NCBI GenBank assembly: GCA_018657765.1
Contig: JABHWM010000020.1
Coordinates: 18,786-82,785 of the forward strand
Source of the DNA: Minisyncoccota bacterium
GTDB taxonomy: Bacteria > Patescibacteriota > Microgenomatia > UBA1400 > PJMF01
DNA: 64,000 bases
Direction: 5' to 3'
Shown: positions 37,179-39,500 of the stretch, piece after piece
How positions within the stretch are numbered: position 1 is the first letter of the stretch
How the letters are laid out: every line of letters starts with the position of its first letter
Position numbers and translations under genes: made by a program
Notes under the pieces: generated by a model
The model's database searches: none
Told to the model about the DNA's origin: nothing
The model's input: only the letters and a program-made list of their open reading frames with translations

Positions 37179-37206
37179 AAAATAGACTGATATATAGCAT
37201 TTTTAT
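37179..37206. repeat. Degenerate (half-site) copy of the dif-like motif
   Basis: AAAATAGACTG-ATATAT-AGCATTTTTAT. The 12-mer AGACTGATATAT (37184-37195) is identical to 39321-39332. The right arm is not conserved. Confidence 0.25.
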
Positions 37207-37723
37207 GCTAGATGACTATATTAGCAGTAATTTTATATCTCTGCTAATGTCTTGTAACTATTTTTAACATACTAAAGATAATTTTAGACTCATTGATCAA
37301 TCCTATTTAAAATAAAAACTAGCGCAAACTCATCTTAAAAATATTACTTAATTTTCTAAATAGAGAAGGCTGATCTCAATCATACTTTGAAATCAAAAAC
37401 TCATGATAAAAAACCATAAATAATATATCAAAACATTCTTCTAGATAACTAAAAAACATTTCTAGATTAGAGTCGTATAAAAATAAAAAAACCTTTAAGA
37501 AAAAATCAGCTATTTCTAAGAGAAAAAAACATAGCATTAATAAAATAGAGTAGAGGATAGTAAAAAAAATTAATTAAATAAGCTATAAAATCACAAAAAA
37601 GACAAAAATTACTTCAAAAATAATATATCAAATCATTGTTTAATATAAATAAAGAATATAAGTATGTTCAAACATTATCTAAATATATTTATATATTCTT
37701 TAAGCATTTTATATATATAGAAC

Positions 37724-38668
37724 TTAGTCTTTTTTTAGTGAATGATGTTTCTCATGGATCTTTCGCAATTGAGGGCGAGTAACATGAGTATAAATCTGAG
37801 TAGTAGCAATATTTTTATGACCTAACATCTCCTGAACATCACGCAGTCCAGCTCCATTACTCAACAGATCAGTAGCAAAACTATGCCTGATCCCATGGGG
37901 AGAAAGCTTGATAGGTAAATGAGCCCGCCTGCTATAAGTATCAACCAAACGCTGAACACTCCTAGTAGTAAGCCTCATTTCTTCTCCATCTGTAAATAAA
38001 GCCTCTTTTTTTCCAGAAAAACGAATAAATACTGGTTTCCATTGATCACCACCCCTAGTGTCCAACCACTTCTCCAGCCAAAAAACAGCCCTATCACTAA
38101 GAAACACAACTCGAGGTCTTCTTCCTTTACCGATTACACCAAATTCTTTTCTCTTGAGGTCTATCTGATCTCTATCCAGCTTGACTAACTCACTCACCCG
38201 CAAGCCTGTAGAGAATAAAACCTCTAAAATAGCTCTATCCCGCAAACCACTATGCTTTGATACATCTGGTGCTTCCAGTAAACGATCTATCTTCTCTGCA
38301 GAAACAAATTTCATTGGAGTAGATTCTGCTTTGGGTAACTCTATTTTTTCTGGATGAAGAACTTCTGCATCTCGCTTTACTAACCACTTAAACCAAGAAC
38401 GAAGAGAAATTACATGGTAACTTTGAGTTTTTTTTGAAAGTGTTCTACCTAACTCATCTTCATACCTAGCCAAATACACCCTGTATTTTCTCAATGTATC
38501 TTGATCTAGCTCTGTCAAATCTTTAAAACCTTGCTTTGTAAACCAGTCATTGAAACGACGTAAGTAATGATTATAATTACGGATCGTTAGCTTACTCAAA
38601 TTTTTTTCTACTTCCAGAGACTCTAGAAAATTAACTAACGATTCTGCTGGTAGAGTGGAAATAGCCAT
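37724..38668 (-). CDS. Tyrosine site-specific recombinase, XerC/XerD-like
   Basis: N-terminal SAM-like domain. Catalytic residues in GLRVSEL (Arg), HGIRHSFAT (HxxR) and LGHKNIATTQIYTHV (His and Tyr). Confidence 0.85.
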   Translation of the reverse strand: MAISTLPAESLVNFLESLEVEKNLSKLTIRNYNHYLRRFNDWFTKQGFKDLTELDQDTLRKYRVYLARYEDELGRTLSKKTQSYHVISLRSWFKWLVKRDAEVLHPEKIELPKAESTPMKFVSAEKIDRLLEAPDVSKHSGLRDRAILEVLFSTGLRVSELVKLDRDQIDLKRKEFGVIGKGRRPRVVFLSDRAVFWLEKWLDTRGGDQWKPVFIRFSGKKEALFTDGEEMRLTTRSVQRLVDTYSRRAHLPIKLSPHGIRHSFATDLLSNGAGLRDVQEMLGHKNIATTQIYTHVTRPQLRKIHEKHHSLKKD

Positions 38669-39315
38669 AGCTTATTTATACCGCAAACTCAAGTGTTCAG
38701 CGAGTCATATTTATTTTTCATTGCTTAATAAATTTATTTCCAAGTTTATACAACTCTAGATACTATAAGTCATTAGCAGAGAACAAATTGTTCTGCCAAT
38801 ATCATTATTATATAAAAAACCATGATGTACCAGTCTTTAACTAATGATATACTTTGATGTCTTTAGACAGATTTAAATATAGCTAATAAAGAAAAAAGGA
38901 CGTTAAGCAGAGAACTAATACCAAAAATAATCTAGCCTGGATACTAGATGTAGATTTATCATAAAAGATTAATATCAAAACAAACTACTCTACAAAACTA
39001 AAAAAATAATTTAAAAGCTTACCAAGTGCCCAAAAATAACTAAATATTTTAGGGATAAAATTTAAAATTATTAATAGAAACTAAGTTATAAAAAATAAAG
39101 TTTATTGTTAATTAATTTTTTAAGAATTACTACATAGCAAATAAATAAATAGAGAATCAAAGAAAAACAACAATCCTACAAAAATTCATATTTTTGTTAA
39201 AACTAGTGACAATATAAATAAAACAAAAATCAATCCAAAAGACCTACAAAAACAAGGCTCTTAAAAGGCTCAAAAACGGCTTTTTTTGACAAAGATGAAC
39301 TACTTATCATCCATA

Positions 39316-39343
39316 ATAATAAGACTGATATATCAGTCTTAAA
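39316..39343. repeat. dif-like 11-6-11 site containing a perfect 22-bp palindrome
   Basis: TAATAAGACTG-ATATAT-CAGTCTTAAAT. Positions 39319-39340 are a perfect palindrome. Lies about 650 bp upstream of the Xer-like gene. Confidence 0.35.
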
Positions 39344-39472
39344 TAGTTTTTTAGTTCAAAATATTTTTACCATAAAAAACAACCTCTTTAACGCCCTAGA
39401 AACAATAAAATTGTGTGTATTTTTAAAGACATATTTATATAGATAGGCAGGAGAATCGAAAACTAATATTAG

Positions 39473-39500
39473 AAAAATAACTGATGTATCAGTGTAAATA
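39473..39500. repeat. Second, imperfect dif-like palindrome
   Basis: AAAAATAACTG-ATGTAT-CAGTGTAAATA. Shares the ACTGAT(A/G)TATCAGT core with 39316-39343. Confidence 0.25.

Follow-up and report, generated by a model that had tools for sequence, protein, structure and literature searches.

The locus studied here lies in a stretch of 64,000 nucleotides, the window, on contig C28 of a Patescibacteria genome (G000), and its central gene, xer-1, encodes a tyrosine recombinase (Table 1). The protein P0001 carries the Phage_integrase domain (PF00589, 1e-41) and an N-terminal SAM-like domain (PF02899, 7.5e-13), and by our own reading the residues R, K, H-x-x-R, H and Y are found in LRVSEL, GKGRRPR, HGIRHS, LGH and IYTH. 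Its nearest solved relative is E. coli XerD (2e-43). The NCBIfam models gave 252.8 bits for XerD (cut-off 329.6) and 252.3 bits for XerC (cut-off 335.15); because both values are below the equivalog cut-offs, the protein is of the Xer type and not assignable as C or D. The matches to XerS (114.8 bits) and XerH (E 3e-11) are far weaker than those to XerD and XerC. One ortholog was found in 41/41 relatives with 38-83% identity (52-83% in all but one), and the gene order around xer is fixed among relatives, including the DUF5656-like and YebC/TACO1 genes. Judged from these sequence comparisons, xer-1 is a core single-copy housekeeping gene and not a mobile-element integrase; the profile matches, the closeness to E. 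coli XerD and the ortholog in every relative support the view of the preliminary description that the recombinase belongs to Xer and not to the phage integrases. The same description had started from systems with a single recombinase, a premise that does not hold, since a second Xer paralog is also core (39/41 relatives) and the lineage encodes an FtsK with gamma domain. An island targeting the tRNA was rejected as well, because xer is a core gene situated on the 5' side of tRNA-Ala.

Upstream of xer follows a gap without any ORF under code 11 or code 25, and an alternative genetic code was discarded as an explanation for such ORF-less gaps because code 25 opens nothing. In relatives the gap has a length of 1.5-1.85 kb and contains islands of nucleotide conservation. 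The tblastn matches to the gap fall in all frames and on both strands, hence it is non-coding. The Rfam search of positions 36500-41000 at E-values up to 1 returned only the tRNA and no structured RNA family in the gap. RNase P RNA and tmRNA are located elsewhere in the genome, while 6S and SRP RNA were not found anywhere in it; the idea that the gap hides the SRP RNA was abandoned because the M domain of Ffh is missing as well. On the other side of xer, the spacer contains the two direct repeats with TAATATATCA cores at 37421 and 37621 reported before. The repeat search aligned 45 nt at 80% identity, and local alignment extended them to about 75 nt (score 31 vs 18.8 +/- 3.0 for shuffles). This spacer is much longer in the host genome than in most relatives.

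Table 1. Genes and sequence elements at the xer locus, with positions counted from the first nucleotide of the window.
Feature	Position	Strand	Basis or remark
tRNA-Ala(GGC), downstream of xer, same strand	37020-37094	-	ARAGORN; Rfam tRNA 62 bits
Downstream CIRCE+box module	37187-37247	-	CIRCE 37221-37247, 22-nt linker, degenerate box 37187-37198
Two direct repeats, 200 bp apart	37415-37459 and 37615-37659	+	Spacer between xer stop and module
xer-1, XerC/XerD-type tyrosine recombinase, 314 aa (P0001)	37724-38668	-	Pfam Phage_integrase
ORF-less gap, 1.8 kb, xer to DUF5656-like gene	38669-40464	.	No ORF, synteny
Upstream CIRCE+box module, diverging from xer	38773-38833	+	CIRCE TTAGCAGAGAACAAATTGTTCTGCCAA at 38773-38799
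Degenerate box 1	38822-38833		ATGATGTACCAG; 22-nt linker after upstream CIRCE
Box 2 (main palindrome of the preliminary description)	39320-39341	.	Conserved core CTGATATATCAG at 39325-39336
Box 3 (second copy of the preliminary description)	39481-39492	.	CTGATGTATCAG
dif-like 11-6-11 element ATGTCGCAAAA-GTTATA-TTGTGCGACAT	39564-39591	+	Phylum-wide conservation
DUF5656-like membrane protein, conserved neighbour	40465-41232	-	Pfam; synteny
YebC/TACO1, conserved neighbour	41257-41850	-	Pfam; synteny

The interest in this region came from palindromes on both sides of the recombinase gene. The main one is the 28-mer TAATAAGACTG-ATATAT-CAGTCTTAAAT at 39317-39344 (initially placed one base to the left, at 39316-39343), which includes the perfect 22-bp palindrome TAAGACTGATATATCAGTCTTA, 652 bp away from the xer start codon. 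The second, imperfect copy AACTGATGTATCAGTGTAAATA is present at 39479-39500, and the common 12-mer AGACTGATATAT is found at 37184-37195, adjoining tRNA-Ala(GGC). Within the window YTGATNNATCAR occurs 3 times vs 0.64 expected, a number reached by 3/100 shuffles. By our own estimate, chance would give about 0.05 perfect 22-bp palindromes in a window of this size. The chance test inside the window alone is weak evidence for the boxes. The comparison with relatives is more informative on what is conserved: only a core of 12-14 bp, aTTGAT-NN-ATCAAt, is retained instead of 28 bp with two arms of about 11 bp, and the outer arm positions vary even inside the genus. This box is kept at the same places beside xer, as the preliminary description had expected for the motif near xer orthologs, with 3-4 copies at each xer locus compared, and AAAAACGGCTTTTTTT, which precedes box 2, is invariant in the genus. 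Exact copies number 1-4 per genome vs 0-1 in the reversed control in most genomes of genus and family. Further copies are found at unrelated loci, namely before tRNA-Ile, in the mutS/cyclophilin intergenic region, before mraZ and before clpB; the density at the xer locus is the highest in the genome, except before tRNA-Ile.

The preliminary description had taken the 28-mer as a possible dif site or Xer core that, together with a half-site at 37184, might bracket a module mobilised by Xer. Its 11-6-11 shape with the perfect 22-bp palindrome, the retention of the box near xer orthologs and the related elements in mirror orientation on both sides of xer would fit such a role. However, the arms beyond the 12-mer are not conserved, and the motif is present in several copies at the xer locus and at many other loci, often linked to CIRCE repeats. 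Direct recombination between the 2-4 copies within 1.5 kb would remove the DNA between them, which is nevertheless conserved, and the orientation of xer and the order of its flanking genes are invariant in relatives, which also speaks against a mobilised module. Moreover, the cumulative GC skew of contig C28 falls steadily through the locus, hence no skew switch is found there. The comparative data contradict this reading, which we regard as highly improbable, and indicate that the palindromes are copies of a short regulatory dyad box and not recombination machinery.

The most common setting of the box is a distance of exactly 22 nt from the inverted repeat TTAGCAG-N13-CTGCTAA. The composite CTGCTAA-N22-nTGATnnATCA was detected in 94/121 genomes of the family with 1-9 copies each, while the reversed control gave 0 or 1. 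Two such modules bracket xer as mirror images with the CIRCE repeat nearest to the gene, one between the xer start and the ORF-less gap and the other between the xer stop and tRNA-Ala. The palindromes of the preliminary description, boxes 2 and 3, are solo boxes within the gap. The presumed half-site at 37184-37195 belongs to the degenerate box of the downstream module, the CIRCE of which reads TTAGCAGTAATTTTATATCTCTGCTAA on the plus strand. Both CIRCE repeats fit TTAGCAG-N13-CTGCTAA with 0-1 mismatches, and both are 9-N9-9 inverted repeats of the TTAGCACTC/GAGTGCTAA type. The module occurs upstream of xer in 17/30 relatives, downstream in 13/30 and on both sides in 9/30. Where the upstream CIRCE is present in relatives, the box follows at +49 nt as here, and the order xer, CIRCE+box, tRNA-Ala is found in many of them; in most relatives CIRCE lies 12-60 nt past the xer stop vs 477 nt here. 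A mobile MITE-like element as source of the module, or an invertible or mobile cassette carrying xer, was rejected, position and orientation being fixed across relatives.

The repeat can be assigned through its occurrence at chaperone genes. In about 20 relatives the groES promoter consists of TTGACA, 5 nt, and TTAGCAGTC-N9-(G)ACTGCTAA with the -10 element in the loop; because the same repeat overlaps the -35 and -10 elements of this promoter, it is predicted to be the HrcA operator CIRCE. In the host genome CIRCE precedes groES, lon and dnaJ, and hrcA is present (60.6 bits). CIRCE+box modules were also found before clpB and beside hsp20 in relatives, and before a cyclophilin gene, tRNA-Ile and mraZ. 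The repeats share with the classical CIRCE/HrcA system (TTAGCACTC-N9-GAGTGCTAA) the 9-N9-9 architecture with TTAGCA/TGCTAA ends, the location at the groES promoter and before lon, dnaJ, clpB and hsp20, and the presence of hrcA. They differ from it by the local consensus TTAGCAG...CTGCTAA, by the coupled second dyad box exactly 22 nt away, and by their occurrence beside the non-chaperone genes xer, tRNA-Ala, tRNA-Ile, mutS/cyclophilin and mraZ. The modules show no preference for gene starts over gene ends.

Which factor might recognise the box was approached through several candidates. Among 1-base departures from the box we counted about 15 of GU type vs 10 of CA type and many transversions. 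This missing strand asymmetry indicates that the box acts at the DNA rather than the RNA level; an RNA hairpin was rejected for the same reason and because a generic stem of this kind would be too weak. The box fits a sigma-70 -35 element in only 9-14/67 modules per direction, a 2-3-fold enrichment. LexA was discounted because lexA is present with no box in its own upstream region, and a DnaA-box or oriC feature because no cluster exists near dnaA. A further likeness is to the operator of TroR, a DtxR-family regulator of Treponema denticola and T. pallidum, which shares the dyad TTGAT-NN-ATCAA: of the tro operator oligonucleotides, that of T. denticola includes TTTTGATATATCAAAA and that of T. 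pallidum TTTGATGCATCAAA, and the box core TTGATATATCAA is contained in the former (PMC2628430). However, the DtxR/TroR-family DNA-binding domain PF01325 gave no match over the Pfam cut-off in 41 genomes (G000 and 40 relatives), while 12/14 control genomes were positive in the same search. No such regulator was thus found in these genomes, and the likeness is a lead to the recognition mode, not a family assignment. The box is probably the operator of a dimeric regulator or a shared -35-like element, and together with HrcA it would control how xer, tRNA-Ala and any product of the gap are transcribed.

A different element in the gap has several of the properties that the palindromes lack. It lies 60 bp beyond the span originally marked and about 220 bp to the right of the main palindrome, and its inverted repeat extends to 39561-39594. 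Its 24-nt core was found in 140/151 genomes of the order, as a single match in 138 and two matches in 2, and in 196/401 genomes of the phylum with reversed controls near zero. With a position weight matrix the best score was 49.7 in G000 and the closed genome G014, where the next-best hit reached at most 0.6. The pattern GTCGYA(A/T/C)AA-GNNNNA-TTGTGCGAC is present in hundreds of genomes, with four central bases that vary between lineages; its right half hardly varies, whereas the left half is more variable. The sequence is a single-copy 11-6-11 element with conserved arms and a variable, asymmetric centre, and in the host class it is found 0.5-2 kb from xer. The idea of a dif-type site beside the recombinase gene fails for the 28-mer, but plausibly applies to this element outside the interval first considered. 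We therefore favour as the rather likely overall picture that the boxes are regulatory dyads paired with CIRCE, while the dif-like element is the Xer substrate. It would then be the dif site of Patescibacteria, at which the two core Xer paralogs, helped by FtsK-gamma, would resolve chromosome dimers.

The comparison with known Xer systems is consistent with this assignment in several, but not all, aspects. In difH/XerH and in difSL/XerS of streptococci the site is situated close to its own recombinase gene. Both are single-recombinase systems, whereas two core Xer paralogs exist here. With difH/XerH of Helicobacter and the Campylobacterales the element shares palindromic arms; in difH, conserved palindromic arms surround a variable 6-bp centre (PMC3325230), as in the dif-like element. 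Like E. coli dif, the substrate of XerC/XerD and FtsK, the element comprises 28 bp in an 11-6-11 arrangement as a single copy, conservation is much stronger in one of its halves, and two Xer paralogs and FtsK-gamma are encoded. By our own count 17/28 positions are identical in register with E. coli dif GGTGCGCATAATGTATATTATGTTAAAT (PMC3325230), and the commonest variant in the phylum also has CGCATAA in the left arm. A scan for canonical dif with up to 8 mismatches misses the element. Other than E. coli dif with its distinct XerC and XerD arms, the element has near-identical arms (13 bp, one mismatch), and it is situated beside xer and off the cumulative-skew maximum in the host family.

The position relative to the replication terminus gave a mixed picture. 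In the host genome the skew switches on contig C26, which includes the origin with dnaA, and on contig C12, so that origin and terminus are both situated outside contig C28. In the closed genome G014 the cumulative skew has its minimum at dnaA (60 kb) and its maximum at the antipode, 490 kb, whereas the element at 741.5 kb sits on a steadily falling slope about 250 kb away from the maximum. The sign of the skew is likewise unchanged across the element in G000, G026, G038 and G269. In contrast, in the distant genome G262 the element is located between convergent genes with the skew maximum within 6 kb, the gene-strand bias changes across it from 84% plus to 9% plus, and there is no xer nearby. 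When the element was oriented, the gene-strand bias flipped across it in 7/8 genomes and the skew stepped down in 8/8. Scans of the genome with the dif sequences of E. coli and B. subtilis and a core consensus returned weak matches only. The best placed of them, at C12:161527 close to the strand switch, already lacks conservation inside the genus. The matrix scan revealed no additional weaker copy of the element at the terminus, and no conserved non-coding island exists beside parB there. G000 and G014 have short islands in common in their terminus zones, and since these are collinear, they probably represent coding sequence.

The off-terminus position could also point to an analogy with the plasmid sites cer and psi, in which an Xer core is combined with about 180 bp of accessory sequence. 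Boxes 2 and 3 would then be the accessory sequences of a resolution site at the dif-like element, and a protein bound to them, at distances to the core of about 80 and 235 bp, would provide a topological filter for resolution away from the terminus, without positioning by FtsK. Here, too, the boxes are found on one side at fixed distances, since box 3 precedes the core by about 81-85 nt in the host genus, and the distance of box 2 is 229-259 nt in most of the family members examined, reaching 383 nt in some of them; the core of G014 is off the skew maximum, and boxes are denser at the xer locus than elsewhere, tRNA-Ile upstream excepted. However, the same box accompanies CIRCE at loci without any Xer site, the core is retained without boxes 2 and 3 outside the host family, and FtsK retains its gamma domain. 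Unlike cer and psi, the site is chromosomal, and its boxes are also found at a distance from any Xer site. We consider this analogy unlikely.

A more serious alternative, although still a doubtful one, is that the plus strand of the gap encodes a conserved non-coding RNA with its apical hairpin at 39561-39594 and with the boxes as its promoter or operator elements. As RNA the arms would fold with -16.2 kcal/mol (z -4.4), and perfect arms of 17-20 bp occur in some genomes. The variable stem pair in 25 family sequences is CG in 13 and UG in 12, never CA, and across the order CG in 51, UG in 33, UA in 9 and CA in 5. The covariation, with both sides changed in 90 cells vs 64 +/- 6.6, was above all 500 shuffles, but a control slid by +2 scored nearly as high (0.137 vs 0.157). 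One lineage has a 2-nt insertion in only one arm and family f3 a 1-nt bulge; 40-170 nt downstream follow a purine/pyrimidine hairpin with covariation and a TATTCGGGTTTT block that is conserved, and several other conserved non-coding blocks are present in the 1.5-1.8-kb gap. On the other hand, the loop flanks AAAG and ATTG are invariant phylum-wide in a strictly single-copy element, drift affects the left half with no change in the right, and the outer pairs are unpaired in 30-70% of the sequences. In 22 genomes GTCATA stands opposite TGCGAC, which would place A.C plus U.G in a 6-bp stem. Rfam has no family matching the element, and RNase P RNA and tmRNA are already accounted for. The element of G262, in a convergent intergenic region exactly at the terminus and without xer near, also argues against an RNA gene, because such a gene has no reason to track the terminus.

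If the dif-like element is a Xer substrate, the full interpretation goes further: it would be an undescribed dif site of Patescibacteria, linked in the class to one xer gene, located in the host family about 250 kb off the fork-meeting point, and surrounded by 1.5-1.8 kb of non-coding DNA in which the dyad boxes hold fixed positions, next to a HrcA-controlled xer. This complete combination is put forward tentatively, as all of its parts being correct together is rather improbable. In the literature searched, no paper was found to connect a dif site with the Patescibacteria or the Candidate Phyla Radiation.

The palindromes taken alone are an ordinary result, regulatory dyads mistaken for dif. 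The CIRCE+box composite has a wider meaning, because it may represent an HrcA operator wired to a second factor in these regulator-poor bacteria, with a reach to genes well beyond the chaperone set, including a recombinase and tRNAs. If the 28-bp element is dif, it would provide a one-line marker of the terminus or dimer-resolution locus for hundreds of reduced genomes of a very large, uncultured phylum and a defined substrate for the biochemistry of the two Xer paralogs of the Candidate Phyla Radiation. Moreover, deep lineages could be compared for how its position relates to skew, gene-strand bias and linkage with xer. A true off-terminus dif would mean that chromosome dimers can be resolved away from the place where the forks meet; in such a case, accessory proteins bound at the boxes might take part, as they do at cer and psi, and a link of the process to the heat-shock circuit might exist.

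The xer gene of the genome under study, G000 (1.01 Mb in 31 contigs, ~34% G+C, with the window at C28:18786-82785), belongs to an arrangement that is fixed in relatives, in which gyrA, xer, an ORF-less gap of 1.5-1.85 kb, the DUF5656 gene and yebC follow each other. Its product P0001 consists of an integrase catalytic domain and a SAM-like N-terminal domain, reaches about 252 bits with the XerD and the XerC model alike (under both equivalog cut-offs), and has E. coli XerD as best solved relative. Because a single ortholog exists in each of 41/41 relatives from 17 families (38-83% identity, at least 52% with a single exception) and the synteny is fixed, P0001 is a core gene. 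The preliminary description had considered a single-recombinase system, which does not hold: a second tyrosine recombinase (289 aa, 27% identity to P0001), likewise single-copy, is encoded in G000 and present in 39/41 relatives, and FtsK is encoded with its gamma domain included. The lineage hence possesses the classical machinery made up of two Xer recombinases and FtsK. Besides the elements discussed below, the ORF-less gap harbors further conserved non-coding blocks, which are included in the table.

Features of the xer locus and of two sites elsewhere (window coordinates unless a contig or genome is named)
Feature	Position	Strand	Remarks
gyrB, ppaC, gyrA		plus	before tRNA-Ala and xer
tRNA-Ala(GGC), then 314-aa tyrosine recombinase (P0001)	xer 37724-38668	minus	
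Downstream CIRCE + box module	37247 down to 37187		between xer stop and tRNA-Ala
Decayed duplication	37415-37659		in xer-stop spacer
ORF-less stretch, 1.8 kb	38669-40464		beyond recombinase gene
Upstream CIRCE + box module	38773-38833		between xer start and gap
Conserved block AAAAACGGCTTTTTTT	39272-39287		with small covarying GATGA/TCATC repeat
Main palindrome (28-mer)	39317-39344		perfect palindrome 39320-39341
Dif-like element with its inverted repeat	39561-39594		element 39564-39591
Purine/pyrimidine hairpin	about 39625-39650		conserved, in ORF-less gap
Conserved block CTATTCGGGTTTT	about 39763-39776		in ORF-less gap
Two conserved non-coding blocks	about 39880-39990 and 40016-40230		in ORF-less gap
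DUF5656-like membrane protein and YebC		minus	beyond ORF-less stretch
Box-pattern match TTGATTCATCAA	54390-54401		within 439-aa minus-strand ORF
mraZ-rsmH-ftsL-ftsI / parB convergence	G000 C12:157177-161387; G014 about 531-536 kb; G026 about 519 kb		

All sequences initially described around xer were found in the window and the observation of palindromes is confirmed, only the main 28-mer had been placed one base too far to the left. From window statistics alone the evidence for the palindrome is weak: YTGATNNATCAR occurs 3 times versus 0.64 expected, and a count of 3 was reached by 3/100 shuffles. The direct repeats 200 bp apart were recovered with modest significance (score 31 versus 18.8 +/- 3.0 for shuffles). 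The spacer from the xer stop to the downstream module comprises 477 nt in G000 versus 12-60 nt in most relatives, and the decayed duplication in it has a 200-bp period with units carrying the half-box-like AATATATCAAA.

The proposal that these palindromes represent dif had to be given up. At the corresponding places in relatives conservation is limited to a 12-14-bp dyad, aTTGAT-NN-ATCAAt (here called the box), the outer 'arm' bases vary even inside the genus, and three or four copies of the box are present per xer locus. The exact 12-mer is rare yet repeated, with 1-4 copies per genome versus 0-1 for the reversed control in most genomes; its other sites precede tRNA-Ile and mraZ or separate mutS from a cyclophilin gene. 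The third exact match of the box pattern in the window is probably a chance match. A skew switch is also missing at the palindromes, as cumulative GC skew falls steadily over the 146-kb contig C28; the origin is on C26 (skew minimum, with dnaA there), and C12 carries, between ftsI and parB, a skew maximum together with a switch in gene strand. At the latter place the mraZ-rsmH-ftsL-ftsI cluster and a parB-like gene run towards each other, the ends of ftsI and parB overlapping by 22 bp. In G000 this convergence coincides exactly with the gene-strand switch and the maximum of GC skew. In the closed genome G014 no more than about 45 kb separates parB from the skew maximum, and parB is therefore placed in the terminus region and not by the origin.

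We read the flagged palindromes as regulatory dyads coupled to the HrcA operator. Many copies of the box stand exactly 22 nt after the inverted repeat TTAGCAG-N13-CTGCTAA, and this repeat is the local form of CIRCE, the HrcA heat-shock operator. It overlaps the promoter of groES in about 20 relatives (TTGACA, 5 nt, then CIRCE with the -10 hexamer in the loop) and lies before groES, lon and dnaJ in G000, and hrcA is present in the genome. The composite CTGCTAA-N22-nTGATnnATCA was detected in 94/121 family genomes with 1-9 copies, whereas reversing the pattern yields 0 or 1 copy per genome. Modules are likewise located before clpB and next to hsp20, and xer is flanked by mirrored modules with CIRCE adjoining the gene on either side; among 30 relatives the upstream module was detected in 17, the downstream module in 13 and both in 9. 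The supposed half-site beyond xer is the degenerate box of the downstream module, and the two main palindromes are further solo boxes within the gap. Another complete module, followed by phased TGATAT/TTGATA repeats, is located at C29:187-521 of G000, ~200 nt before tRNA-Ile(GAT); nowhere else in the genome are half-sites of the box as densely clustered, and G014 shares this arrangement.

Regarding the nature of the box, its one-base departures (counted manually) are without strand bias and include many transversions, and the generic box would give an A/U stem of no more than 4-5 bp, hence it acts at the DNA level. Its core is identical to the TroR operator of Treponema denticola (PMC2628430); a DtxR-family domain was not detectable in 41 genomes of the order. 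A role as sigma-70 -35 element was rejected, because it fits a minority of the modules only. G000 has a lexA gene on C30, and its upstream region (about 4100-4300) contains a good promoter, TTGACG-18-TATAGT, along with TGCATA motifs in several copies; neither box nor CIRCE was found there.

A much better dif candidate is situated 60 nt beyond the flagged span, where CTTATGTCGCAAAA-GTTATA-TTGTGCGACATAAG represents the most conserved piece of the gap. The element has a dif-like 11-6-11 layout with an almost invariant right half (ATTGTGCGAC), a more variable left half, and four central bases that differ between lineages; dif and difH are described as conserved in this way (PMC3325230). Of 151 genomes in an order-wide sample from 19 families, 138-140 contain exactly one copy of its 24-nt core, GTCGYAAAAG-NNNN-ATTGTGCGAC. 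With <=2 mismatches the core was present in 196/401 genomes of a phylum-wide sample, the reversed controls being essentially zero. In G000 and G014 a weight matrix gave 49.7 at the site and <=0.6 elsewhere. E. coli dif, as printed in PMC3325230, equals the element in register at 17/28 positions, a one-in-thousands match by a rough binomial estimate, and its XerC arm has CGCATAA in common with the phylum's commonest variant of the element (manual count).

A distance of 0.5-2 kb separates the element from xer in 15/17 checked families of the order, and the same holds for two further families of the class. No xer exists within 100 kb of it in two distant families. In G262, a genome from one of the latter, it occupies a 460-bp spacer between convergent genes exactly at the cumulative-skew peak, where the bias in gene strand turns over, with 84% plus on one side and 9% on the other. 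Oriented by the element's own asymmetry, gene-strand bias changes across it from 54-84% to 9-28% plus in 7/8 genomes, and GC skew steps down in 8/8. Against a dif site speaks that the sign of the skew is unchanged across the element in G000, G026, G038 and G269. The position in G014 (853 kb) also speaks against it: there, cumulative skew has its minimum at dnaA (60 kb) and peaks at the exact antipode, 490 kb, and the element is found at 741.5 kb on the falling slope. Since skew is weak and gene orientation mixed between 490 and 741 kb, the orientation switch at this site may be local or historical. Both become strong beyond the element, a pattern that could reflect a past shift of origin or terminus.

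The arms might equally form an RNA hairpin, predicted at -16.2 kcal/mol, a reading that we regard as less likely than a dif site. The variable stem position (CG 51, UG 33, UA 9, CA 5) and covariation above that of shuffles are consistent with it, and the one-arm bulges of some lineages would be easier to accept for an RNA; however, a slid control comes near the covariation score of the element, and the outer pairs are unpaired in 30-70% of the sequences.

Concerning the signal recognition particle, neither Rfam SRP model detected its RNA in G000 even at E up to 1, and the small-SRP model gave no match at this threshold in three closed and two near-closed relatives. The Ffh M domain (PF02978) was found in none of 13 genomes of the order, with 14/14 control genomes positive, and a search of G000 for GxGKTT and DTAGR, the signature motifs of Ffh and FtsY, gave no match. 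The order may be without a signal recognition particle or possess a very diverged one.

Collectively, we slightly favor the view that the dif-like element is a dif site. The initial idea of a dif site beside xer, wrong for the flagged palindromes, probably holds for this neighbouring element, which had not been described before; the searched literature contained no paper connecting Patescibacteria with a dif site. Such a dif-type site would be characterized by near-identical arms and its linkage to xer, and the CIRCE with its partner box would represent a variant on a known kind of operator.
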